Positions 1-12,123 of a stretch of 12,123 bases of DNA are shown here, piece after piece. The stretch is from the IMG/VR virus record IMGVR_UViG_2802429235_000002, positions 1 through 12,123 of that record, one strand, 5' to 3'. This DNA is from a virus (taxonomy: Duplodnaviria; Heunggongvirae; Uroviricota; Caudoviricetes). A program made the position numbers and the translations under genes. Positions within the stretch are counted from its first letter, which is position 1. Every line of letters begins with the position of its first letter. Below the pieces are notes generated by a model. That model worked only from the letters and a program-made list of their open reading frames with translations. It was not told the DNA's origin and did not search any database.

Positions 1-56
1 AGGCCAGTAATGGGTTAAGTGATAACAGGTGTCTGGAAATATAGGGGCAAATCCAG
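1..56 (+). mobile_element. Insertion-sequence terminus (IS2-like, IS3 family), element body lying outside the window to the left
   Basis: Bases 1-56 are the exact reverse complement of 12068-12123. The motif TGTCTGGAAATATAGGGGCAAATCC matches my recollection of the IS2 right-end inverted repeat; family assignment is from memory, not a search. Confidence 0.5.
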
Positions 57-230
57 TAAATGCCCTTACTGTCGCATTTTCATATCTGGCATTCTCAATT
101 CCCAAGGAACAAATGCAACCAACACTGGCATCGCTCCAGCTTGAATCACTCAACCCCAAATGGTCCCAGCAACAACAAAATTCTTTCAAGTGGCTGGCGG
201 TATTACTGGAAGAAAAATATGCTGGTGAAA

Positions 231-575
231 TTACCATTTCGGCGGAGTCTTCAGTGAACCAGTAATTCTTCCCGGCAGTTTTCCTTTGTAGGTTATCCAC
301 ACACCCTGCGCCTCTAAAATTATGGGGCGCTTTTCCGGTGACTGCTCATCCCCTTCACATAACCCTGCAGCAACATCCAGGAAGACCTGTCTGATGCTCC
401 TTCTGGCTGCTGCCTCATAAAACTCCAGCGCGGCACCTTCAACACGGTCCAGCGAGATGTCCAGGTCTAAAATTTCACCGTCAAAGCGTTTTTTGTCCCG
501 TAACGCTAAAGTTACCGTAACTTTATTCTCAAAATTGCGGATCCCTTTCACAATCAGTTCATAGTTTTGAGTCAT
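231..575 (-). CDS. Hypothetical protein (114 aa) immediately downstream of the holin, same strand
   Basis: ATG at 573-575 with a GGGGAGAG Shine-Dalgarno-like sequence upstream; starts 4 nt after the holin stop, so probably co-transcribed. No motif recognised; it is not an endolysin-like sequence. Confidence 0.5.
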   Translation of the reverse strand: MTQNYELIVKGIRNFENKVTVTLALRDKKRFDGEILDLDISLDRVEGAALEFYEAAARRSIRQVFLDVAAGLCEGDEQSPEKRPIILEAQGVWITYKGKLPGRITGSLKTPPKW

Positions 576-579
576 TGAA

Positions 580-795
580 TTACTCTCCCCGTGCAGCCTT
601 ACGCTTATCTTCTTTAATCTTGAAATAAAGATTTGTCAGATACGTCAACAGGCCAAACACCAGACTACCCAGCACACCTATTGCTGCCCACTGTGAGGGC
701 GTGACTCTATCGAGCAACTGTAAAAACCAGTAGCCAGCACTGCCTGCGGAGGTGCCATAGGCGACACCTGTTGTTAACTTATCCATGGATTTCAT
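580..795 (-). CDS. Phage class II holin/pinholin, phage 21 S family (71 aa)
   Basis: The translation [71 protein letters not shown] closely resembles the S21 holin as I recall it, including the dual-start Met1/Met4 arrangement and two transmembrane segments. GAGGTG ribosome-binding site upstream of the ATG at 793-795. The longer 102-aa ORF in the track is a 5' over-extension. Confidence 0.8.
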
Positions 796-1134
796 AACCC
801 CCACCTCGCAGATGCGGGCGCTGTGTAATGGAAACAAAAAATGGCCACCAGCGGCCCGTAAAAAACACCCCGTCAAAAGCACCGGCATCCGCAGATGCCC
901 TTTGCGTGGCGTTATTTGATGCGCGCCAGGTGTGGCGCAAAGAAATGAAATAAGACTTATCGAAAATTAAGGTTAATTTGATGATTTAAACCACTTCTGA
1001 AGCTTAGTAGTATGAACATGTCCCCAGAAGGGGCCAATACTTATTATTCTTCATGGACTTTGTCCCGCGGTCTTAATCCGACGACCGCGCTACTTTTCAC
1101 CCTCTCGCAAATTGCTATCTAAAGGACGTTGTCC

Positions 1135-1167
1135 CACGAGTATTCCTGTATGCTCGTGTCTTTTTTT
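1135..1167 (+). terminator. Candidate intrinsic terminator, plus strand
   Basis: CACGAG (1135-1140) pairs with CTCGTG (1153-1158) around a 12-nt loop, followed by TC and a run of seven T (1161-1167). Confidence 0.3.
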
Positions 1168-1180
1168 GTCCTGAGAAAGG

Positions 1181-1209
1181 AATAAAAAAAACCGCCAGAT
1201 ATGGCGGTT
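1181..1209 (-). terminator. Intrinsic (rho-independent) terminator, minus strand, downstream of the tRNA pair
   Basis: Perfect 8-bp stem AACCGCCA/TGGCGGTT (1190-1209) with a 4-nt loop; on the minus strand it is followed directly by a U8 tract (plus-strand A run at 1184-1191). Confidence 0.7.
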
Positions 1210-1571
1210 GGTCAATGCAAGGGATGAATTTTTTAATTGTTATTAAACCGAGGCGTCGGGTGCCTCCCGAAGTATTCCGTGCTGCATGGATACTGTGGTT
1301 TCCCGCTAAACCGACTCTTTAAACCACCCTCGCACTGAGGAGCGCCTCTGTGGTGCTTTTACAACACCAAAATGATGCATCACCGACCCTGCCAGGAAAT
1401 ACAAAATCTCCACCGATAATGCACCATTCTGCTGCCGTAAAAAATTAGCACTGAGGCTACACCCGGCCTCAAATCATAGCCAGAGAACAGAATGCTTTTT
1501 CAAAACAACCTGCTCCCACGTAATAAAAAAATACGCCAGTGCCGTAATACAATAAGGCTTGTTTTAAATGC

Positions 1572-1646
<75 letters not shown>

Positions 1647-1649
1647 ATA

Positions 1650-1725
<76 letters not shown>

Positions 1726-1977
1726 ATTGGTTCTTCAGGGGAGCGATATCACCGAGCGATATCACCGAGCAAAGAAGAGTTCCCCCTCAGAACCGTTTTC
1801 GATGATACGATTTAATATTCCAATCGCAACAACACTTTGCGTCAAGCTATGTAAATTTATTTATGTATTTTTATTTTATGTGAACATTTCACCTTCACTT
1901 AAAATATACGCGACAATATATAAACAAATTTATTTTGAAGGCAATATTAAATGTCGTTTCTTATATCACACCATAAT

Positions 1978-2010
1978 AACAACAAAACCCGCTTGATGGC
2001 GGGTTCTATT
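1978..2010 (-). terminator. Intrinsic terminator about 85 nt downstream of the Q-like gene (tR'-like position)
   Basis: Perfect 7-bp stem AACCCGC/GCGGGTT (1989-2008) with loop TTGATG; on the minus strand it is followed by TTTTGTTGTT. Confidence 0.55.
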
Positions 2011-2090
2011 AAAGTTTAATTGCGCTTGATTCGCCTCGCGATACAGCTTTGCGAAGCGTAGCAAAATTGAAGCAGTTTACGCGTAAAAAA

Positions 2091-2501
2091 TCAAGCCGTT
2101 TTTTGAGCGAATGATTCTCGCATGGGAATGTATAGCGCATACTCAGCAACGGCCAACCAATTAGCAATTCGCTTTTCGCATGTGCTAAAACACCACTCTG
2201 GGTGTGCATCATTTAGCAATTCAGCCATTTTGCGTTTGGTCATCCCCCGCCCCTCATACCGTTGCCGAAGGACGCTAATCAATCCTGGATGCTCTGCCAG
2301 CACCTCACTTATGACCCGATCAATACATAACGCCTCTGCATCAGTACAATGCGCCAGCCAGCTCTTTTGCTTGCCGTTGATCATCTCTCTCAAAAACGCT
2401 TCCAGCTCAGCTTTCTCTATTCCCGCTTTTTTCATTCTGCGCAGGGCTTCATTGATGGCTGTTTTCGTCAATTTTTTGGATGCCAACAACTGATTGAACA
2501 T
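2091..2501 (-). CDS. Putative late-gene antiterminator Q-like protein (136 aa)
   Basis: Start chosen at ATG 2499-2501 (AGGA Shine-Dalgarno-like motif about 5 nt upstream) rather than the 220-aa extension, which overlaps the upstream gene. The Q-like call rests on position only (last gene before terminator, tRNAs and holin), not on a recognised motif. Confidence 0.4.
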   Translation of the reverse strand: MFNQLLASKKLTKTAINEALRRMKKAGIEKAELEAFLREMINGKQKSWLAHCTDAEALCIDRVISEVLAEHPGLISVLRQRYEGRGMTKRKMAELLNDAHPEWCFSTCEKRIANWLAVAEYALYIPMRESFAQKTA

Positions 2502-2629
2502 ATTTCCTGACCTGCCACCGCCAATATACGACCAGCGCCCCCACATACGCAGTTTGCCCTGAATCCAGACACTTTCCAGCGTGGCGAGACGAAGGTGTTC
2601 TCCGCTTTTTCCTGTATTCGTTGGGTAAA

Positions 2630-2920
2630 TCACAAATATCCCTCCTTTCTCCAGATTTCTTGTGTGCGAAAAACACCTTCTGCATGCATCAGGCGTAATT
2701 CTTCTTTGGTGTAATCGCTGGTTTTTACCCGCCCGTCGATTAGATCGTGGCATGAGCTACAGGCAATCGCCGCCTGCATATCGTGTGGTTTTGTCGCTAT
2801 TCCGCACGTTCCCGCCAGTCGGTAATGCGCCAGCACAGACGTTTCCGGATCGTGATTGCAGTAGCCAGGAATTCTGACGGTGCACATCTGCCCCCGCGCC
2901 GCTTTACGTAAATCCACCAT
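2630..2920 (-). CDS. ybcO: YbcO-like nin-region protein (DUF1364-type, Cys/His-rich, 96 aa)
   Basis: MVDLRKAARGQMCTVRIPGYCNHDPETSVLAHYRLAGTCG...ACSSCHD resembles E. coli DLP12 YbcO (also 96 aa) as I recall it. Its start overlaps the upstream stop as TAATG, suggesting translational coupling. Confidence 0.7.
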   Translation of the reverse strand: MVDLRKAARGQMCTVRIPGYCNHDPETSVLAHYRLAGTCGIATKPHDMQAAIACSSCHDLIDGRVKTSDYTKEELRLMHAEGVFRTQEIWRKEGYL

Positions 2921-3519
2921 TACGCAAACTCCAGCAGCTGCGCGGCCACATTTTCGACTTGTTCCGGAGAGGAAAATTTACGGAACAGAATCCAGTTCCA
3001 CAGCACATTCAGAACAGATTTATAAACCTGCTGAAACTCGGTTTCGTCCATATTCGCAAAAGCGATGGATTTCGCCCGACGCCCATGGCTACCGTCCGGA
3101 TAAAAATGTTCGGTGTAAAATCCAGCCTGAATGGTTACCCACTCGCGAAAAGCCTCAAACGACTTTAGCAATGCCGTATCCCGAGTTCTGCGTGTCGCAA
3201 CTGTATTCAGATATTGCTCTGCGGCATCACTCAGGGCTGGCGTGTGTTCCCGACCAACTGATTCGCACAGGTAATCAACGAAACCAGACAGCAGTTCTCG
3301 TTCGCGAGGCGTGATCGCCCCACCGACCGGAGTCCAGTAATCGAATCCCAGTTGCAGGAGTTTGAAAAAACGCTTGTGGAATGCGTAGTTACGCACACGC
3401 TTAAAGTCTGCGTGTATCCACTCACCTATTTTGATTTGATGCAGGAAATCGCAACTCTCCGGCGTCGCCGGGAGAAGTAAACCAGAAGAGGTTTGTTTGA
3501 CCAGTTGTATATGCGCCAT
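2920..3519 (-). CDS. Phage nin-region hypothetical protein (199 aa)
   Basis: Long ORF with typical coding composition, co-oriented and translationally coupled to the YbcO-like gene. Family not recognised. Confidence 0.6.
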   Translation of the reverse strand: MAHIQLVKQTSSGLLLPATPESCDFLHQIKIGEWIHADFKRVRNYAFHKRFFKLLQLGFDYWTPVGGAITPRERELLSGFVDYLCESVGREHTPALSDAAEQYLNTVATRRTRDTALLKSFEAFREWVTIQAGFYTEHFYPDGSHGRRAKSIAFANMDETEFQQVYKSVLNVLWNWILFRKFSSPEQVENVAAQLLEFA

Positions 3520-3792
3520 TTGTCAATCTCTCGATGGCGCAGTGCAGCAGATGCCAGTTGTTCAGGCCGACGTATAAAGTATAAATAAACTGATTCCAGT
3601 GTAAAGCCCCCACATTGATGGAATAAAAACCAAACAACAGATTGCTGGGATAAAAACAACGCTTATTATTAAAAGCGGTTAAACAAATTAAATTTTAATG
3701 TTATGCAAATCTACCAGATCACCATAATATCTCATTTGAAAACCACTGAAATAACAACCCTATCAGGATTAATCATATTAAGGTGAGTAAAT

Positions 3793-3879
3793 ATGGAAAA
3801 CAACAAATCTGCACATTACGCTCCTTTTTTATCTGTAATACTTTTTGTTTTATGCTGTGCGTGGGCATTATTTTTATAA
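3793..3879 (+). CDS. Candidate small hydrophobic peptide (28 aa): MENNKSAHYAPFLSVILFVLCCAWALFL
   Basis: ATG at 3793 preceded by AAGGTGAG at about 7 nt; single predicted transmembrane helix; lies in an AT-rich ORF-free spacer. Not in the supplied ORF track because it is under 60 aa. Confidence 0.3.
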   Translation: MENNKSAHYAPFLSVILFVLCCAWALFL

Positions 3880-3985
3880 AAATATTTACAGATAAAATAA
3901 ACCCGCCAAAGCTGGTTAAGTGTGGGTGCGTTGAGGATGCATAATACATCAGAGGTGGCGAGGGATTTCTCCCTCGCCCGGTCTC

Positions 3986-4141
3986 TTACTCCTCAGGTTC
4001 GTAAGCTGTGAAGACAGCGACCTCCGTCTGCCCGGTTCGGATTCGTACCTCGCAGAGGTCTTTCCTCGTTACCAGTGCCGTCACAATGACGGTTAAACAG
4101 ATGACGATCAGGGCGATTAACATCGCCTTTTGCTGCTTCAT
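3986..4141 (-). CDS. hokD: Hok/Gef-family type I toxin (51 aa)
   Basis: MKQQKAMLIALIVICLTVIVTALVTRKDLCEVRIRTGQTEVAVFTAYEPEE matches the Hok family and, from memory, E. coli HokD/RelF. AAGGAG ribosome-binding site 9 nt upstream of ATG 4139-4141. An in-frame upstream ATG at 4198 gives a 19-aa N-terminal extension. Confidence 0.85.
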   Translation of the reverse strand: MKQQKAMLIALIVICLTVIVTALVTRKDLCEVRIRTGQTEVAVFTAYEPEE

Positions 4142-4352
4142 AGCCTGCTTCTCCTTGCCTTTCGGCACGTAAGAGGCTAACCTACATGTGCAAAGCATGA
4201 AATTGGCCTCAGATTAATGTTAAGCGTCTTGCCGGACGCGTAATGTTAACTGGGGCTTTTCTCTATCTGCCTTTGGTGTTCATGCCCGAGGCAGATAGCC
4301 TCAAGCACCCGCAGCAATTCTACTTAACTCCCGTCACCTCGCCAATATAAAA

Positions 4353-4442
4353 TCAATCAGAAAGGCGATCCATAAGAACAACAGCAAGACAATAAATTGC
4401 TATTACAGCAGCAATAGCCAGCGCACATTTGAGAACCAGCAC
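4353..4442 (-). CDS. Candidate small hydrophobic peptide (29 aa): MLVLKCALAIAAVIAIYCLAVVLMDRLSD
   Basis: Consensus AGGAGG Shine-Dalgarno 5 nt upstream of a GTG start at 4440-4442; single predicted transmembrane helix; sits between the hok gene and the 3' end of the NTPase gene. Under 60 aa, so absent from the ORF track. Confidence 0.4.
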   Translation of the reverse strand: MLVLKCALAIAAVIAIYCLAVVLMDRLSD

Positions 4443-4810
4443 GACAACCTCCTGTATTGGACGCACACCAGTCCTGATAAATATGAGGCTGTCTCGTCAG
4501 TGATTCAATACAACTATTGGGTATAGTTTATCTATTTTTTCTTTGGCAATGGAACACAACAGCCAAACATAACCAACACTTCTTCAGATGTATTAAGTCA
4601 GGCCCCAACCAGCATTTTGAGTAAGCAGTTCACTCAAATATGACTATCTGATTTGAGCGACGTGCGAACATTTACGATAGCTTCACTATGATTGATACAT
4701 TCTGCAATCTCTTTGTCTCAGAAAGTCGAAAGTAGCTTAAGCTATATTATCAAGAGGATAATCATCACATTGAAGGTCGATACGTTACCTTCAATGTGAC
4801 AATCTATTTA

Positions 4811-7069
4811 TTATTGAATTTGCAGGTTTGTACGTAAGGAACCTGTAGATTCCTCATATAACTTAGATATATAATTAGACATATCATGGTTACTTCGTAC
4901 TTTTTTATTGAATTTTTTCAGGTACTTATCAACCGTAGTGCTAAGTAGCCCTGAGTCGTCTGTAACGTGAGTTATCCCTAAATTAATCAAAACACCTAAT
5001 TTATTTTTTTCCACTAAGCTATCAAATGCGGATTTATCCCCGAGCTCATTCAGTGTTGATGCTATGAAGAAACGTGCATAATCAATATGTTCACCAATTT
5101 CCTCATATTGTTCAATTTGAACTGACAAGTCTTCCAAGGCAGATTTGAAAAAATCATATGCGTAATTGTTACTTAAACACTTTGTGAAAATACAAAGAAG
5201 AGCTACTGGTGAAAACTCCTTCAGCGGGATGTCGGTATTTCCCTTGAGAATATCAACATATAATTTACCTGCATCTATATATGATAAAAGGACTCCCCTC
5301 GTTATTTTTTTATACGGAGTTAGATATGAAGCCAAATAAAAAGAACCGTTATAAAATAACCTTAAAAATCTTGTTTTATCGTTACTAGGTTTAAGTTCAT
5401 TAATTTTATCAATAAGATATTCATTGTCTCTTAACAAACCAAAATAGAAGAAATAACTATTTGCCCAATAAATATCATAAATATTATCATTTATGTCTAT
5501 TAGGCCACGCTTCCTAAGTCCTTCAGCGTAAAAATACTCCATGAATGATCTGTGTAGAAATGAGAACGTATTACTTCTAACATTAACTGTTGTTACTTCA
5601 CTGCGATAAATTAGTCTTTTGAAAAGTTTGTCCTCATCAACATTCAAGTTTCTTTTGGCCAAATAATTTAAAAACATGTCCTGCACTTCTGAAATTGATA
5701 TGCAGTTTAGAGAGTTATCCATCATAAATATCGCAATTTCTACTAATATATTACTTATTACATCATATTCTGTTTGCGATAATAATCCCTTAGATGTATC
5801 CCATCGTCCCAATACTATCTCACTGTATTTTGAGTATAGTTCTGTCATTGTAGATGGTAATTCTTTAATCTCATCAGAGAGTATTCTTGCCAGAAGAATA
5901 GCGCTCACTGGAGTCCTGGGAATGAACTTAAATAGTGGTGTTTTTTCTATACCATTTTTAAGTTTATTTGTTATTTTAATGTCATTGCAGATTTTATCTA
6001 CAAAGTCGATTATTTGACCTGTGCTAAGTGGTATTATCGAGTATCTTGCAAACATCTGATCGATAACTTCATAGTCCTGAAGAGAATCCATAATTCTTGA
6101 AGCAACTAGTAATCGAATTTTATCATTCCTGGATACTTTCTCTACAATGTCCCTGAAGTTGTTTTGCCTTTCCTCAAGTGATTCCTTTACTTCATCCACC
6201 GAATCAACAATTAATAAAATATTCCCATCATGTTGTATTTTGTACTTACTTAACACACTTTGTATTATATTTTCAACATTAAGTTTTTTTTCTAGAACAT
6301 CCTTGTATTGACAAAATACTGGAAGGATGTAGTCTTTTTCGTAAGAATATTCTTCTTTTATTTTTCTAATTAACTGTTTCAGCAAAGTACTTTTCCCAGA
6401 GCCAACGGTTCCCTCTAAAAAAATAAATCTCTCGGCTCTCACAACACTATACAGTTTTAACGGCCTGTGTCTGCGTTTTTTATGATCTTCCTTGCTTACA
6501 TATCTATCAATAAGGTTATTTATGCCAACACTACCAAAAAAAGAGCTTTCAGGTGTATCACTTATGGTTTGCAATGTATCTGTTAAGTATTGTTCATAAT
6601 TAATGGATTCGAAATCCCAAAACTCTGGGTAATATTTACTGATTAAAGAACATATTTTTTCACCCTCTATAAATTTTATATTTGTAGATTTGAATTTCAA
6701 GTAAATTTTTTCTTGAGCATTATTTGAGATCGATGAATTAGTAATAACCCAAATTTCATTCAAATGTATGTTCTTAGAGCCAGAAGAAATAAAGCGTGGA
6801 TATAATTGACACTCTTCTATTTGTCGTTCAACCTCACTATTTGACTGAATTATCTTTCCAACTTTACAAATAACACCAATATATATTTCCTCGTCTAATG
6901 CCTCATCTCGTTTAATTATGACAAAATCAGCACCTTTTTCTGATGGTCCTTGCTTATATTCAACATGTGTAACAGTCGGCAAACGTGGTAGAAGCGCTCT
7001 TGGCACTGGATGGAAATCATCAACCTCACGTTGCAATGATTCTATTTTTCTTAAGTATTCTGGTTTCAT
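4811..7069 (-). CDS. NACHT/STAND-type P-loop NTPase, NLR-like (752 aa), with an unassigned N-terminal domain and helical C-terminal region
   Basis: Walker A GTVGSGKST (codons at 6386-6412); Walker B LLIVDSVDE (NACHT-style hhhhD-x-x-DE) followed by LLVASR, resembling the NACHT sensor-1 hhhTSR motif. About 205 aa precede the P-loop and about 270 aromatic-rich residues follow the NTPase core. AAGGT ribosome-binding site 7 nt upstream of ATG 7067-7069. The gene is conspicuously AT-rich compared with its neighbours. Confidence 0.8.
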   Translation of the reverse strand: MKPEYLRKIESLQREVDDFHPVPRALLPRLPTVTHVEYKQGPSEKGADFVIIKRDEALDEEIYIGVICKVGKIIQSNSEVERQIEECQLYPRFISSGSKNIHLNEIWVITNSSISNNAQEKIYLKFKSTNIKFIEGEKICSLISKYYPEFWDFESINYEQYLTDTLQTISDTPESSFFGSVGINNLIDRYVSKEDHKKRRHRPLKLYSVVRAERFIFLEGTVGSGKSTLLKQLIRKIKEEYSYEKDYILPVFCQYKDVLEKKLNVENIIQSVLSKYKIQHDGNILLIVDSVDEVKESLEERQNNFRDIVEKVSRNDKIRLLVASRIMDSLQDYEVIDQMFARYSIIPLSTGQIIDFVDKICNDIKITNKLKNGIEKTPLFKFIPRTPVSAILLARILSDEIKELPSTMTELYSKYSEIVLGRWDTSKGLLSQTEYDVISNILVEIAIFMMDNSLNCISISEVQDMFLNYLAKRNLNVDEDKLFKRLIYRSEVTTVNVRSNTFSFLHRSFMEYFYAEGLRKRGLIDINDNIYDIYWANSYFFYFGLLRDNEYLIDKINELKPSNDKTRFLRLFYNGSFYLASYLTPYKKITRGVLLSYIDAGKLYVDILKGNTDIPLKEFSPVALLCIFTKCLSNNYAYDFFKSALEDLSVQIEQYEEIGEHIDYARFFIASTLNELGDKSAFDSLVEKNKLGVLINLGITHVTDDSGLLSTTVDKYLKKFNKKVRSNHDMSNYISKLYEESTGSLRTNLQIQ

Positions 7070-7099
7070 TTGTTTACCTTAAACAGTATCCAAAAAAAT

Positions 7100-7135
7100 C
7101 ATTTTATATAACAATCATATTTCATACAATGTCAA
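7100..7135 (-). promoter_or_regulatory. Candidate sigma70 promoter for the NTPase gene
   Basis: On the minus strand a consensus TTGACA (plus 7130-7135) is followed 16-19 nt later by a TA-rich stretch (TGTTATATAA), about 35-60 nt upstream of the ATG. The exact -10 hexamer is ambiguous. Confidence 0.35.
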
Positions 7136-7170
7136 CTATTAGACTCTTTTTCAACATTATAAACCTATTA

Positions 7171-7500
7171 TCAAAGACTAAGGCGACGGATTTCTCCGTC
7201 AGGTAATGACCAGATAAGGTCAGGATCAACCACAACCGGTTTCTTCACCTTTGCCCTTGATAGTTTTTTGCGGGCGTTTTGCCAGTCTTTACGAACCTGT
7301 TCTGAGGGAAATAACCCGTAACCAGAGTTGTATACATCACCGCTCGCAACCAATTCTCTGGCAAGAAGGTTCATCAGATATCTTGTCGCACCTGTCTTAG
7401 CTTCCAGTTGTCGTAACGTCTCGCGCCCACTCTGGCGCACGAGTTCAACAACCTGCCCTTTAATTTTTTCCCGCCCTTCTTGTGTAAATACTTTTGCCAT
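7171..7500 (-). CDS. Hypothetical protein (109 aa)
   Basis: Start chosen at ATG 7498-7500 with a GGAGG Shine-Dalgarno 5 nt upstream (the track's 114-aa version begins 15 nt earlier). Normal GC content, co-oriented with the replication genes. Confidence 0.55.
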   Translation of the reverse strand: MAKVFTQEGREKIKGQVVELVRQSGRETLRQLEAKTGATRYLMNLLARELVASGDVYNSGYGLFPSEQVRKDWQNARKKLSRAKVKKPVVVDPDLIWSLPDGEIRRLSL

Positions 7501-7515
7501 AAGCGCCTCCGGCAA

Positions 7516-8277
7516 TCACTTTTCCGATACAATACGGCGGGAAGAATCCGTAATCTGTCGAACAATATCCCGGTGCTTGTTCAGCTCCCGCAGCGCGGCG
7601 CAGACTCGCTCCCACTTCTGGACATGACTTTTCGCCCGACGCAATTCGCGGTTTGCCATATGCAGCGATGGTAAAACCAGGTCATCCGCTCGCGTTTCAG
7701 TAAACGATGGCAACGACTGCACAATATCAGCCACAGTTTCTGTTTTAATATCTTCCTGTGTTGCAGCTTCCTGTACTGGTAACGCAACACCTGCTGGCTG
7801 AGGAAAGGCTTTACCATCGGTTTCCGCTACCGATTCAACTTTCGGCTCTGCTGGTAAATTATCACCCGGTATGCAGTAACGAAATTTACCGTTCTGATTA
7901 ATGCGAATCAGACGACCTTTGCTGATAGCCATTGCCAGCGTTGAAGCCACTTTGCGTGATGTGGTACCGAACAATGTAGCCAACTCATCAGCCGTTTGTG
8001 GTCCGCGTTGTTCAATCGTCGCGGTTAAATCGCACTCTGAGATTTTCGCTACTGTTGCTGTGGTGGTTTCTTCCGGCAGTTCTGCCTGCGCTGGCTGTTC
8101 CTGCTGAACGTTGTTATCAGCCACACGCCAGGTGTACGCGCTTTTATCAACAAAACCAGCCTTTTTCAGTTCCCATAGTTCGTTCAGCACTTCTTCACGA
8201 CTGATATCAAGTCGCGCAGCAAGTTCTATGGATGTGGCTTTTCCCATTGCTTTCAGTGCGTCAAAAACAGTCTCCAT
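7516..8277 (-). CDS. Phage hypothetical protein with two winged-helix-like segments and an acidic linker (253 aa)
   Basis: Start chosen at ATG 8275-8277 (GGGAG upstream), avoiding the 29-nt overlap with the DnaC-like gene implied by the 270-aa track ORF. Two similar segments ([29 protein letters not shown] and [29 protein letters not shown]) look like HTH/winged-helix repeats. Confidence 0.6.
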
Positions 8278-8299
8278 TAAATTTTTCTCCCGGTAAAAA

Positions 8300-9046
8300 T
8301 TACTTCGCAATTCCTGGCTGGACGACATTCGGACGCCAGCTCTCCCAGTTAAAATTCACCCATCGCCCGCCGTTCATGGTCATGCGATCCATAATCCGCT
8401 CGCCGAGCAATGTTTTCATGGCCTCATAGTTCAGGTTTGTCAGCATCCCCACGCTGCGCATCGACGCTGTCCGGCGATCAACAATCTGGTGCAGTACCAC
8501 CTGCTCGTTTTTCGTCTCGCGCTGAATGCCAATTTCATCAAGAACCAGCAGATCCACTTCGCACAGTTCCCGCAAAAATTTTTCGCCTGACTGCCCATCG
8601 TCATAGCTGGCGTGCAGGGCACTCATAACATCAGCCACGGTAACCACAATCACTGTCTGACCGTCTTTCAGCAGGTGATTCCCGATAGCTGCCGCTAAGT
8701 GGTTCTTCCCGGTACCAGGTTTTCCGCTGAACGCAAAATTTGTACACCCGGTCATCAGTTCATCAGCGATGGATTTCGCCTGACTCAACGCGTATCGCTG
8801 CCCTTCGTTCTGCACCTGGTAATTCGAAAACGAGCATTTGCGGTGCAATGGCTGGATGCCAGAGCGATTCAGAATTTTTTCCACCCGCAACTGACGATTC
8901 TGACGGTTGATCTCCTCACAACGTTTCTGGCCTTCGGAAAGTTGCCACTCGCGCCACTCCGCTACCGTTTTGAATGGGGCGGTTACATGTGGCGGGGCCA
9001 GTCTACGGATACGTTCAAGAATGCCGCCTGCCGCAATATTTTTCAT
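8300..9046 (-). CDS. ydaV: DnaC-like replication helicase-loader AAA+ ATPase (248 aa)
   Basis: Walker [10 protein letters not shown] and Walker B LLVLDEIG; the length and context match the Rac prophage ydaV (248 aa) as I recall it. Confidence 0.85.
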
Positions 9047-9052
9047 GGTCAG

Positions 9053-9910
9053 TTACCCCCTGAAGCCTGGCGGGATCGCACTATCCGGTAACGAGACGGT
9101 GTTAACCTGTCGGAGTAACGTCTCAGGTCGAACACCTTTTGGCGCGAACAAGCCCTGGTATTCATTGGCGATGCTGTGTCGAATCACCTGCTCAGGTGAA
9201 AAACCCTGCTGGCGGAATTTTTCCAGCTCCCGTATCGCCCCGTTAGCGCCCTGCTCCGTTCGAATCGGTTTACGCAATGCCTGGCGAAATTCAACCCACT
9301 CACGCCAAAGCGAGACAGAAATCCAGTTCGGCAAAGCAATATCCAGAGGGTCAAACTTTTTGACACCTCGATTCCCCCGGGGGGGATTTAGGGGGGGATC
9401 TTTTTTTAGATCTTTATCTGTATCTTTATTAGTTGCCTTTGTGTTGACATCATGTTCAAACACCACTTCAACATCTGTTTGAACACCTGTTAAATTTCTC
9501 TCTTGTTTTGTTTGAACATCTGCTTCCTTTCTGCTTCTTCTGGCCTGAACAGATGCTTTTCCTGCGGCTGATTTTTTGGTTAATTTTTCCCTGACTGATG
9601 CCAGATCTTCCTCAATCCGAAGATGCACTCATTCCTCGCCGTTATCGCAAAAAAACTCCTGCAAGGATGGTTCAACATCAGCCCATCGCTCGTTAGTCAG
9701 ACGGGCAATTTTTGCCAGCCTGTTTTTAGGTATTGGCTTTCCTGTTTGCCAGTAATTGAACATCAGCAACAAATACGCACCATGCTCCTCTGCTGACAAA
9801 TGCATGGTGTCAGCCAGGTAATCAGCTATGTACAGTTGCATGTATGGTAATGCGGCCATAATTGCCCCGTATGATGCTGCCCGGTTGCTTAGAATAAGCA
9901 CAAACAGCAT
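9053..9910 (-). pseudogene. ydaU: YdaU-like replication-region gene interrupted by a single in-frame TGA
   Basis: Track ORFs 9629..9910 (93 aa) and 9053..9628 (191 aa, GTG at 9626-9628) are in the same frame, separated only by TGA at 9629-9631. The combined length of 285 codons equals my recollection of intact E. coli YdaU. Confidence 0.5.
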
Positions 9911-9922
9911 GGAAACTTTTGC

Positions 9923-10345
9923 TTAATGAACAATGACAGAATCGTCGGAAGACCCGCCGCCGCTGAAATGCGCTTTCCGGTAAACGGCCTGGACTGCATC
10001 ATCATGCGCATCAATTGCCGTACTTAACGCTTCCTGCGCCGCCAGTAATGCACGGCGTTCCAGGGTATCGAAGATGCAGAGTCGGTGACGCAGCTCGCGC
10101 GGAAGGATTGCCAGAACCGCAGGGATCAGTTTCTGAATTTTTTCCCTTTGCGCTTTCGTTTCACCTTTCAACCAACGGTGATAGATATTCTGCTGATTGT
10201 TCCAGTCCTTGCCTGGTACCAGGGGCAATTCGCCGCCCCCCTGGCGCAGATATTCTTCAGTAATGGCATTGGCTACCCATGCCTGCCCTTTTTCAGCAGC
10301 CAGGGCTAACAACACTGATTCGATGTGCTCATGCTTGATTTTCAT
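9923..10345 (-). CDS. ydaT: YdaT-like prophage protein (140 aa)
   Basis: Length and position (between the Cro-like and ydaU-like genes) match Rac ydaT. Its start overlaps the upstream stop as ATGA (10342-10345). Confidence 0.65.
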   Translation of the reverse strand: MKIKHEHIESVLLALAAEKGQAWVANAITEEYLRQGGGELPLVPGKDWNNQQNIYHRWLKGETKAQREKIQKLIPAVLAILPRELRHRLCIFDTLERRALLAAQEALSTAIDAHDDAVQAVYRKAHFSGGGSSDDSVIVH

Positions 10346-10596
10346 GAATCAACTCCCATCAGCTTTTTCGTAGTAGTTTTATTTTTGCCAATAGTTAAAA
10401 TTGCATCGGCAGAAAATAATCCGTTTGATGCATGAGCGATTTTTTCAGCGTAATTTGTTTCGCCGGTATATTCTGTGCGAGGCAATTTTCCGTTATCCAT
10501 CCATTTGTAGATTGCTCTTTGGCTGACACCACAAACGTCGGCCACAACAGAAACGCGAACAGTTTTGATTACATCTTCAAGTGTTTTCTGGTTCAT
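10342..10596 (-). CDS. ydaS: Cro-like HTH regulator, YdaS-like (84 aa from the start chosen here)
   Basis: Start chosen at ATG 10594-10596 with GAGGGTG about 5 nt upstream. HTH-like segment VADVCGVSQRAIYKW. Divergent from the repressor gene. Confidence 0.6.
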   Translation of the reverse strand: MNQKTLEDVIKTVRVSVVADVCGVSQRAIYKWMDNGKLPRTEYTGETNYAEKIAHASNGLFSADAILTIGKNKTTTKKLMGVDS

Positions 10597-10675
10597 ATCA
10601 CCCTCACAATGTGAACTTTGAGTACATGCTATAACAGAACTGACAGTACATTCAAGAGCGAATATCATTGAACTT
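10597..10675. promoter_or_regulatory. Divergent promoter/operator region between the Cro-like and repressor genes (OR-like)
   Basis: 79-bp intergenic region containing the palindrome TCACA-A-TGTGA (10603-10613) and two direct AGTACAT copies (10620-10626 and 10647-10653). Confidence 0.45.
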
Positions 10676-11095
10676 ATGGTTCATGAAGATAAAGCGCGTA
10701 AAGAGTTCGCCAGTAGGCTTGCGCTAGCCTGTGAAAACGCTGGTTATGAACAACATGGAAGGCAGGCAGAAATTGCCCGTCGAATGAAATTAACACCAAA
10801 AGCGGTTAGCAAATGGTTTAATGGCGAAACAATTCCTCGCCGAGAGAAATTAAGGGAATTAGCAACACTCATTGGAACAACACCAACCTATCTTTTGGGA
10901 GAGGATACAGAAGAAAGTGGACAGGTACGTTTCTATCAGGAGTTAAATCCAAGACAAAAAATCATCATTGACCTTCTGGACGAGCTCCCTGACAGTGAGA
11001 CAGATGAACTTTTAAAAACTCTTGAGGAGAAAAAACAGAAGTACAATGCAATTTACGAAGAGTTAGCACGAAAGAAAAAACAAAAAGCCTCTTAA
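10676..11095 (+). CDS. XRE-family HTH prophage repressor (139 aa), RacR-like by position
   Basis: N-terminal HTH-like segment GRQAEIARRMKLTPKAVSKWFNGETIP and a charged C-terminal tail; divergent from the Cro-like gene as in lambdoid immunity regions. Start codon uncertain (weak ribosome-binding site). Confidence 0.65.
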   Translation: MVHEDKARKEFASRLALACENAGYEQHGRQAEIARRMKLTPKAVSKWFNGETIPRREKLRELATLIGTTPTYLLGEDTEESGQVRFYQELNPRQKIIIDLLDELPDSETDELLKTLEEKKQKYNAIYEELARKKKQKAS

Positions 11096-11164
11096 ACCAG
11101 CATAAATCCGGTAGCGTCCCCCTCCGGGTTTGTGCTTCACTTTATCCCATCTCATTTTTTTACA

Positions 11165-11215
11165 CACAGAATGTACTTAAAGTACTTTACAACAATGAAC
11201 ACAAAGTACATTATA
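11165..11215. promoter_or_regulatory. Operator-like palindrome cluster downstream of the repressor gene (OL/PL-like)
   Basis: Perfect 13-bp palindrome GTACTTAAAGTAC (11173-11185) and another AGTACAT copy (about 11205-11211), sharing the AGTACA half-site seen in the 10597-10675 region. Confidence 0.4.
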
Positions 11216-11382
11216 TACCTACCAACCCACCCCGCCCCACAGAACGCAGGGCAATACTTCGAGTTACCAGGCAGTGGTCAGGGGTTAAGTAGCCAGCCCG
11301 AGGCGTATGAACATGACGGCGGGATTCAAATTTTGCAGTGCAGCAGTTAGTTCCGCCACCCGGCGTTAAGGGGAGAGATAAG

Positions 11383-11517
11383 ATGGTGCATTACGAAGTA
11401 GTTCAGTTTTTGATGGATTGTTGCGATATCACTTACAGCCAGGCTGTACAGGCTCTACGCAGCAACGACTGGGATCTCTGGCAGGCAGAAGCCTCTATCC
11501 GCAACAACAAAATGTGA
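11383..11517 (+). CDS. ydaG: YdaG-like small protein (44 aa): MVHYEVVQFLMDCCDITYSQAVQALRSNDWDLWQAEASIRNNKM
   Basis: ATG at 11383 with GGGGAGAG upstream; the 44-aa length matches Rac ydaG as I recall it. Under 60 aa, so absent from the ORF track. Confidence 0.55.
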   Translation: MVHYEVVQFLMDCCDITYSQAVQALRSNDWDLWQAEASIRNNKM

Positions 11518-11527
11518 GGTGCGAAAA

Positions 11528-11680
11528 ATGCAAAAAATCGACCTCGGCAATAACGAATCCCTGGTGTGCGGCGTGTTCCCCAACCAGGATGGAACGTTCA
11601 CCGCCATGACTTATACCAAAAGCAAAACATTTAAAACAGAAACAGGCGCACGTCGCTGGCTTGCCAGAAATACTTGCTAA
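11528..11680 (+). CDS. ydaF: YdaF-like small protein (50 aa): MQKIDLGNNESLVCGVFPNQDGTFTAMTYTKSKTFKTETGARRWLARNTC
   Basis: ATG at 11528 preceded by GAGGTG, which overlaps the ydaG-like stop. Length and order match Rac ydaF by recollection. Confidence 0.55.
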   Translation: MQKIDLGNNESLVCGVFPNQDGTFTAMTYTKSKTFKTETGARRWLARNTC

Positions 11681-12067
11681 TCCATTATTTGGATTAATTC
11701 AATATTCTCGCTGTAGGGGTATAGCAGAAACCACCAAAGCCCGGAGGTGGTGAAGTAAAACCGGGCACAACACGAAGGCGCATTTCCGATATCCATAAAG
11801 AGTCGGTCTTGTCTGTTAAATTTAAATGGTGGGAGTGCGCCTCCGGTTGTGAATAACAACACTGCTGTGTGTAGTCTTGGCGGCATCAGTTTTTTCTTGA
11901 AGTTCGACTGATGTCCGCCCTTTTTAAAGTGAATTTTGTGATGCGGTGAATGCGGCTAAGCGCACGCGGCACAGTTAAAAGTCATGTTAGTCCTTATTGG
12001 TTTGGGTGGGAAAGCCGACTGTAATTGTTAACTGGTTGCAGTCACCTGGAGGCACCAGGCACCGCAT

Positions 12068-12123
12068 CTGGATTTGCCCCTATATTTCCAGACACCTGTT
12101 ATCACTTAACCCATTACTGGCCT
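12068..12123 (-). mobile_element. Insertion-sequence terminus (IS2-like), inverted copy, element body lying outside the window to the right
   Basis: Exact reverse complement of bases 1-56; identity stops precisely at 56 bp. Confidence 0.5.

Follow-up and report, generated by a model that had tools for sequence, protein, structure and literature searches.

What is a large NTPase gene of the NACHT family doing in the AT-rich middle of a phage gene series, and do related prophages carry something else at the same position? These questions are raised by a 12,123-nucleotide (nt) stretch of viral DNA (Caudoviricetes record IMGVR_UViG_2802429235_000002, positions 1 to 12,123; hereafter, the window). 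The sequence-only reading of this DNA had singled out positions 3540 to 7170 as a compositionally distinct cargo segment and had proposed that it marks a variable position in related prophages. Our analysis leads to the following answer, to which we assign a probability of about 90%: the segment represents a moron, a single-gene, foreign, AT-rich cassette, which encodes an allele of the antiphage protein bNACHT25 and lies in a defense-gene hotspot of lambdoid prophages that extends from the gene for the Ren-like DUF977 protein to the hok/sok toxin-antitoxin locus.

Cargos between DUF977 and hok/sok

To locate the breakpoints, the window was aligned with 8 comparator loci, drawn from other Escherichia coli prophages and phage mEp460 (loci are denoted by L numbers; Table 1). 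On the right side, homology breaks at the same point, 7183/7184, in all seven comparators that have DUF977; on the left side, the breakpoints are staggered from 4330 to 4584, depending on the comparator. This combination of a common right and staggered left breakpoints defines the segment from 4585 to 7182 as the NACHT-specific part. The flanks are kept and the interior varies; there is no single interior common to all related prophages. At least 13 cargo types were found between these two anchors, in prophages of E. coli as well as in sequenced phages, with hok/sok and DUF977 kept at 88 to 95% identity. The proposed hotspot is thus supported, but its boundaries had to be corrected: the variable slot is narrower than 3540 to 7170, starting between 4330 and 4584 and ending at 7183/7184, hok/sok is one of its anchors, and the stretch from 3544 to 3898 is a separate module.

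The slot is found on at least two nin backbones (DUF1367 or DUF968/RusA) and on two replication backbones (ydaU/ydaV or another). Because it recurs on different backbones, the slot is defined by its anchors and not by the whole prophage. The earlier label “Rac-like” suits the replication and immunity genes of the window (ydaT, ydaU, and ydaV); the slot also occurs on other lambdoid backbones, with a DUF968/RusA nin region and a different replication module. Five of the cargos match known defense systems, namely, the cyclic oligonucleotide-based antiphage signaling system (CBASS), AbiU/AIPR, AbiH, and PD-T7-1, plus relBE, which is located beside hokD in the Qin prophage of strain K-12. Several slot cargos read opposite to the strand of the phage operon, which fits expression independent of that operon.

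The right anchor, DUF977, is truncated in the window. Its homology to other DUF977 genes ends at 7183, after codon 106, and is followed by three cargo-encoded codons and a stop codon. Compared with five full-length homologues (in L002, L007, L010, L011, and L012), the window protein has lost approximately 27 conserved C-terminal residues (YDRRLNIICxECRKSEVMQRILAFYQG, which include an IICxEC motif). The same truncation is seen in all NACHT-bearing prophages examined, and RefSeq flags the gene as a pseudogene in L001, L005, and L014. Since homology breaks inside DUF977 and these residues are gone, the 3' end of the gene appears to have been removed by the acquisition of the cargo, and its loss would be a mark of illegitimate recombination. 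In other prophages, the extreme C-terminal tail of DUF977 varies with each cargo, so that the slot's right edge usually coincides with the very end of the gene. DUF977 is named LygF in some phage records. A terminator-like match at positions 7201 to 7184 lies inside the DUF977 coding sequence (PDGEIRR) and was treated as coincidental.

Table 1. Features of the window and cargos found between the same anchors in other loci (positions are those of the window unless a locus is named)
Feature	Position	Strand	Evidence or remark
DUF1367/NinB-like gene, 199 amino acids (aa), first gene of the nin module, conserved left flank	2920..3519	-	Pfam DUF1367, 1.8e-96; PHROG 319 “NinB/Orf,” 2.3e-69
AT-rich spacer A, second independent mosaic module	3544..3898	.	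Breakpoints; 32.7% GC; no RefSeq gene
Candidate 28-aa hydrophobic open reading frame, MENNKSAHYAPFLSVILFVLCCAWALFL	3793-3879	+	GGTGA-type ribosome-binding site; inside the conserved patch of spacer A
Complete hokD/sok type I toxin-antitoxin locus, conserved left anchor	3945..4345	-	Pfam HOK_GEF, 2.7e-23; Rfam RF01794
hok 3' hairpin	3951-3986	-	dG -27, z -5.0
hokD coding sequence	3986-4141	-	Pfam HOK_GEF
hok leader/sok region	4136-4310	-	Rfam RF01794, 115.8 bits, E 2.3e-26
hok promoter-like site	4345-4317	-	Consensus scan
Conserved 37-aa hydrophobic open reading frame, MRPIQEVVVLVLKCALAIAAVIAIYCLAVVLMDRLSD	4353-4466	-	GTG start, AGGAGG 5 nt upstream; sequence, conservation
NACHT-specific cargo, found only in prophages with the NACHT gene	4585..7182	-	Breakpoints; 32.1% GC
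Minimal transferable unit (moron): upstream region, coding sequence, and 3' hairpin	4743..7160	-	blastn against the Citrobacter sedlakii island
Terminator-like hairpin with an 18-bp perfect stem, just past the NACHT stop codon	4760..4804	-	dG -23.2 kcal/mol, z -5.4; none of 200 shuffled sequences folds equally well
Allele of bNACHT25, 752-aa bacterial NLR-related antiphage protein	4811..7069	-	742 of 752 residues identical to WP_001702659.1
Upstream region of the NACHT gene, 113 nt	7070..7182	-	23% GC; is the “native promoter” fragment of the pLOCO2 clone of bNACHT25
DUF977/Ren-like gene, conserved right anchor, truncated	7171..7500	-	Pfam DUF977, 1.7e-16; PHROG 142 “Ren-like exclusion protein,” 1.6e-26
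Slot cargo: ABM + B3/B4 + HTH	L012		Left breakpoint 4330
Slot cargo: QueH	L002		Left breakpoint 4375
Slot cargo: alpha/beta hydrolase	L011		Left breakpoint 4383; enterohemorrhagic E. coli strains
Slot cargo: CBASS pair, CD-NTase (SMODS/AGS_C cyclase) + SLATT_6 effector with two transmembrane segments	L003, 3007-4955		Left breakpoint 4392
Slot cargo: PD-T7-1 homologue	L007, 4993-6342		Left breakpoint 4560; 4e-157; phage mEp460 (mEp460_ev081)
Slot cargo: DUF5677	L009		Left breakpoint 4584
Slot cargo: AIPR/AbiU-like protein	L010, 2422-4197		Left breakpoint 4584
Slot cargo: AbiH (fragment)	L013, 6118-6717		Left breakpoint 4584
Slot cargos: KilA-N, ead/DUF7167, and DUF551/DUF4014 sets			Other E. 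coli genomes
Slot cargo: regulator + acetyltransferase			Phage Evi

The NACHT gene and its cassette

The 2,259-nt open reading frame (ORF) of the NACHT gene is intact in the window. Its product is 98.7% identical, over the full length, to bNACHT25 of E. coli ECOR11 (WP_001702659.1), a protein related to nucleotide-binding leucine-rich repeat (NLR) proteins, and matches 393 of the 399 bNACHT25 residues printed in S3 Table of PMC12169576. The NACHT domain is recognized at residues 214 to 331 (Pfam, 5e-09, 36.6 bits, against a cutoff of 26.7), with the Walker A motif GTVGSGKST at residues 220 to 228 and the Walker B motif LLIVDSVDE at residues 285 to 293, both read from the sequence. The NCH1 domain (Pfam PF22728, 1.2e-38) occupies residues 576 to 741 and covers positions 1 to 168 of the 173 in the profile. 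Residues D48, H506, and S508, which were mutated in the published work on bNACHT25, are all kept. PF04471 is found in two distant homologues. In a large protein collection, the window protein belongs to a 285-member cluster; a neighboring cluster, 82% identical, holds WP_057688292, which is bNACHT32.

The NACHT DNA is found in 18 of 5,426 complete E. coli genomes. In each case there is one copy, on the chromosome, and its flanks are those of the window in at least 17 of the 18. Twelve genomes carry the window allele at 99.9% DNA identity. The complete genome of LC-1302-2020 (L014) encodes exactly WP_001702659.1 in the same slot, between a truncated DUF977 and DUF1367. None of 50,697 phage records contained the NACHT DNA; only the spacer at positions 4393 to 4584, a stretch common to only some prophage and phage lineages, was matched there.

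The gene comes with DNA of its own on both sides. The published bNACHT25 insert begins one base inside the mosaic junction, at window position 7182; over the 399 nt printed, it is approximately 97% identical to the window. Within this upstream region there are perfect copies of TTGACA (7135-7130) and TATAAT (7161-7156) at a noncanonical mutual spacing. A homologue with 91% identity is encoded in Citrobacter sedlakii, in a small nonlambdoid island that also contains an integrase fragment, an IS3-type transposase, and a zeta toxin. The DNA homology between the window and this island is confined to positions 4743 to 7160 (87%), i.e., 91 nt upstream, the coding sequence, and 68 nt downstream. Taken together, the unit shared with Citrobacter, the 3' hairpin, and the upstream region fit the classical definition of a moron, with a putative promoter and terminator of its own; this concept of lambdoid phages reportedly goes back to Juhala and Hendrix. 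As with the lambdoid morons, we see an additional gene that brings along a hairpin and an upstream region, present at the same position in some but not other close relatives, and of deviant base composition (32.1% GC in the cargo from 4585 to 7182, compared to 46.9% outside it).

The published protein offers a guide to what this cargo may do. bNACHT25 is a clade-6 bacterial NLR-related protein that protects from DNA phages as well as RNA phages (PMC12169576). Upon infection, it triggers DNA degradation, which is abolished by the D48A substitution; it requires the host dnaJ/DnaJ to sense the phage, the coat protein of MS2 being one known trigger; and the published gene functions outside any prophage context (PMC12169576). 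By analogy, the window allele would act as the published bNACHT25. In a lysogen, the gene would be transcribed from its own upstream region; judging from the 98.7% identical protein, the C-terminal NCH1 domain, together with host DnaJ, would sense infection indirectly, with the MS2 coat protein as one trigger; the NACHT module would transduce the signal; and the N-terminal Mrr-like PD-(D/E)xK nuclease would degrade DNA, halting phage production.

As for the origin of the cassette, the single right junction common to the NACHT-bearing loci examined argues for a single capture, presumably by the same illegitimate recombination event that would have removed the 3' end of DUF977. Lambdoid phages that share a host or infect it could then have spread the cargo, or replaced it, through homologous recombination in the two anchors, hok/sok and DUF977. 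In general, temperate phages and defective prophages are said to undergo relaxed homologous recombination with each other.

Several observations weigh against this account. The route by recombination, for entry and for spread, is suggested by the breakpoints only. The match of the Mrr_cat profile to the first 200 residues (E 6.4e-4, 20.3 bits) falls just below the Pfam cutoff of 21 bits. The allele differs from the assayed protein at 10 residues (L23P, V109I, K235R, I265V, S315N, V318I, M447I, T499S, A590T, and H609K), and the first of these substitutions falls in the nuclease domain. PADLOC-DB 2.0 gave no specific match for the NACHT protein, only weak P-loop hits, and NCBIfam likewise returned nothing specific. 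A consensus scan detected no canonical minus-strand sigma-70 promoter between 7070 and 7182; it did not list the hairpin at 4760 to 4804 either, which lacks a clean U-tract. On the side of the hotspot, QueH, DUF5677, the alpha/beta hydrolase, B3/B4, and KilA-N have no match among known defense systems. Finally, 6 of the 18 genomic copies of the NACHT gene look disrupted: four are overlaid by a second annotated “hypothetical” ORF, IS3 cuts one at its 5' end, and one is a half copy. Split copies were confirmed as pieces of 462 and 267 aa in L004 and L005. Because of these disrupted copies, the NACHT gene does not appear to be under uniformly strong selection.

This last observation, that one-third of the complete-genome copies look disrupted, is also an argument for regarding the NACHT gene as a decaying passenger of a defective prophage remnant, bounded by insertion sequences (ISs), that is no longer defensive in this strain. 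The truncation of the neighboring DUF977 and the 56-bp inverted copies of an IS end at the two ends of the window point in the same direction, and in E. coli, H-NS commonly keeps foreign AT-rich DNA silent. We consider this alternative unlikely. The ORF is intact and, at 98.7% identity to a functional allele, retains the Walker A motif (GSGKS) along with D48, H506, and S508; the DNA upstream of it shares approximately 97% identity with the fragment from which the published clone is functionally expressed. The 12 genomes that carry the allele nearly unchanged, and the ability of the published gene to work outside a prophage (PMC12169576), likewise favor a bNACHT25 allele that still serves in defense.

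Base composition and mosaic structure of the segment

Calculation of GC content confirmed that composition is not uniform. The segment from 3540 to 7170 has 34.9% GC, compared to 47.4% in the rest of the window. In 500-nt windows, GC fractions inside 4585 to 7182 (0.318 ± 0.015, maximum 0.354) and outside it (0.469 ± 0.039, minimum 0.358) have disjoint ranges. The low GC content seen in the sequence-only reading is thus real and strong, but it does not extend over the whole segment: the hok/sok part, from 3899 to 4392, has a backbone-like 50.2% GC and parts two AT-rich pieces, from 3520 to 3898 (32.7% GC) and from 4585 to 7182.

This pattern bears on the possibility that the entire stretch from 3540 to 7170, including hok/sok and both AT-rich pieces, was acquired as one cargo island. 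The flanking of hok/sok by AT-rich pieces and the low GC of the segment as a whole would agree with such an island, and hok/sok is itself an accessory, selfish module that can be lost or replaced with the NACHT gene kept: positions 3881 to 4554 are replaced in L005, and an IS element (IS1 or IS3) is found there in L006 and L014. However, hok/sok accompanies every alternative cargo examined, and its region is matched in 4,845 of the 5,426 complete E. coli genomes. The breakpoints of the three pieces (3544-3898, hok/sok, and 4585-7182) are mutually independent, and the Citrobacter copy shares none of this DNA beyond the minimal unit. A single island is very improbable and, in our view, already refuted. 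With its backbone-like GC content and its matches in most E. coli genomes, hok/sok is not a cargo; it is the conserved left anchor of the slot that holds the bNACHT25 cassette.

The least probable alternative, that the low GC content reflects local regulatory or intergenic phage DNA or a mutational bias and not horizontal acquisition, can draw on other short AT-rich noncoding patches in the window (1601-2200 and 10400-11200) but is already refuted by the extension of low GC over a 2.26-kb coding sequence, with 26.8% GC at third codon positions compared to 43 to 67% in nine neighboring genes, by the absence of this DNA from nearly all related prophages, and by its recurrence in the unrelated Citrobacter island.

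The hok/sok locus of the window is complete: its match to Rfam RF01794 spans the full model (1-157) at a score well above the gathering score of 59, and the Hok peptide is unchanged in 7 of 8 comparator loci. In the Qin prophage of K-12 (L008, a K-12 derivative), positions 4001 to 4257 correspond to window positions 3899 to 4155, and homology ends at window 4155, inside the 5' end of hok. The relE/relB genes begin where this homology stops, directly upstream of hokD. Thus, Qin has the same hokD, with relBE in the place of the NACHT cargo, but lacks the DUF977 anchor and, as follows from the end of the homology, the hok leader/sok region that is complete in the window. The hok region was also found, at 95% identity to the window locus, in the phage record PP818812.1, whose recorded host is Actinobacillus pleuropneumoniae; hok is unexpected in that host, which suggests either a recent transfer or a mislabeled or contaminated record.

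Relation to known systems and other features of the window

The window protein has the same length as bNACHT25 (Kibby et al. 2022/2023; Conte et al. 2025, PMC12169576), the same order of domains (Mrr-like DNase, NACHT, and NCH1), an upstream region in common, and, in the one complete genome with exactly the reference protein, the same prophage slot; it differs by the ten substitutions, and the published function belongs to the reference allele. bNACHT32 of E. coli RU1 MA4 (WP_057688292) has the same architecture, shows 82% identity over the first 399 residues, and is also DnaJ and nuclease dependent (PMC12169576), but it is more distant from the window protein and has different upstream DNA in its published clone. 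The word “prophage” does not occur in the main text of PMC12169576 and occurs once, in an unrelated sentence, in the 2022 preprint; in open-access text, we found no description of the prophage context of bNACHT25.

Prophages are known to carry defense systems at specific hotspots (Vassallo et al. 2022, PMC9519451; for P2 and P4, Rousset et al. 2022, PMC9122126). Like the P2/P4-type hotspots, the slot described here has conserved flanks around diverse, often defense-related content; it extends from the Ren-like DUF977 to hok/sok, ahead of NinB or DUF968. In a recent genome-wide survey, hok was not enriched within 20 kb of known defense systems (10.1101/2025.08.07.668861). A local association in lambdoid prophages is compatible with that result, from which it is also apparent that such an association has not been noted before. 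We found no paper, in open-access text, that describes the DUF977-hok/sok slot.

A broader proposal, which we regard as tentative and somewhat less than an even bet, is that the DUF977-hok/sok interval is a widespread, previously undescribed defense hotspot of lambdoid phages; that its uncharacterized cargos (DUF5677, the alpha/beta hydrolase, the B3/B4 + ABM + HTH set, the stand-alone QueH, and the small ORFs next to hok) include new antiphage or counterdefense functions; and that hok/sok, perhaps with the 37-aa ORF described below, serves as a recombination anchor or addiction module by which the slot is maintained at its position. By rough extrapolation from a spread sample, perhaps one-third of E. 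coli genomes or more may contain the slot. The cargo gene, hokD/sok, and the concepts of morons and prophage hotspots are all already known, and the cargo gene brings no new mechanism, so that the added value of these findings is modest. It consists in the context, which places a well-studied NLR-like immune protein in its native setting as a single-gene AT-rich moron of a lambdoid prophage, and in a lead for mining the slot, as the pair of hok/sok and DUF977 anchors could be used to search lambdoid prophages for further defense candidates. This setting also poses a question of self-immunity, namely, whether induction of the carrier prophage triggers its own bNACHT25.

All phage genes of the window are on the minus strand, in the order Rac-type immunity/replication block, DUF1627, DUF977, NACHT gene, hokD, DUF1367, DUF1364/YbcO, DUF1133 (a Q-like antiterminator), tRNA-Thr, and tRNA-Gly. 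The immunity/replication block corresponds to ydaT, ydaU, and ydaV by the RefSeq naming in the near-identical genome L001 (98.9% identity over the shared region). The placement of the segment between the replication and nin modules was correct. The two genes that had been named as its flanks, of 199 and 109 aa, are DUF1367 and DUF977, respectively. Since PHROG assigns DUF977 to “Ren-like exclusion protein” and DUF1367 to “NinB/Orf,” the NACHT segment lies at the replication/nin junction, which in phage lambda is occupied by ren and, after it, ninA and ninB. The DUF1367 flank is kept in the comparators L002 and L003.

The terminal 56 nt of the window (1-56 and 12068-12123) are perfect inverted copies of each other, and each corresponds to the end of an element of the IS3 family that is annotated in L014 (3742-3797); we take this sequence to resemble the terminal repeat of IS2. 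The window could be either a 12-kb piece of prophage with inverted IS copies at its two ends or a contig from short reads that runs into the repeat on both sides. Because it ends in inverted copies of an IS end, the prophage that carries it is probably a remnant. Two families of short direct repeats were detected in the window; neither flanks the cargo, whose borders thus lack target-site duplications and att-like repeats.

Spacer A is present in L002, L003, L009, and L013 and missing in L007, L008, L010, L011, and L012, in which homology begins at 3899; its position is taken by rem in L007, L008, and L010 and by other DNA elsewhere. It contains a conserved patch (3784-3863) with 4 variable columns in 80 nt, compared to 13 in the 40 nt before it, and an inverted repeat of 20 nt (3827-3846 and 3878-3897) that would form an AT-rich hairpin spanning 3827 to 3897. 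The fold z-scores are -3.5 and -4.3, the latter for the plus strand. The 28-aa ORF within the patch is intact in 5 of 5 loci with spacer A; its 3 synonymous and 3 nonsynonymous changes are uninformative, and the exact peptide is without a match in the protein collection. The patch could encode a small membrane peptide or toxin, or it could be an RNA or DNA element.

The 37-aa ORF adjoins the hok promoter on its upstream side. Each of the five loci with the spacer at 4393 to 4584 (the window, L007, L009, L010, and L013) has an intact copy, with 14 synonymous and 11 nonsynonymous codon changes. Some GenBank records of E. coli contain the exact sequence under the name “membrane protein”; it is left unannotated by RefSeq and has no match in Pfam, NCBIfam, or PHROG.

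Other small ORFs fared less well. The 29-aa ORF (3922-4011, plus strand) is not a gene, its start codon being lost in 7 of 8 homologous loci, two of which show a frameshift or stop. The 58-aa and 53-aa ORFs in 3773 to 3949 were rejected because they overlap on opposite strands in a region of 92 to 96% identity; their substitutions are uninformative (13 synonymous and 19 nonsynonymous in the former, 16 and 11 in the latter), and neither has a family match. Of the four genes initially listed for the segment, hok and the NACHT NTPase are borne out by their Pfam matches, the 29-aa ORF is dropped, and the 28-aa ORF is still only a candidate. The stretches described as ORF-free (3540-3980 and 4200-4810) have indeed no RefSeq gene in a 99.4% identical genome, but they harbor the mechanical 58-aa and 53-aa ORFs, the hok leader/sok RNA, and the 37-aa ORF.

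Downstream of the Q-like antiterminator, the tRNA-Gly(TCC) and tRNA-Thr(TGT) genes, within positions 1572 to 2090, adjoin an AT-rich, gene-poor patch (36 to 39% GC, 1601-2200). Because homology to L001, the closest complete genome, ends at 2029, this patch is probably a second variable position, judging by the alignment; at this site, Shiga toxin phages carry their toxin genes.

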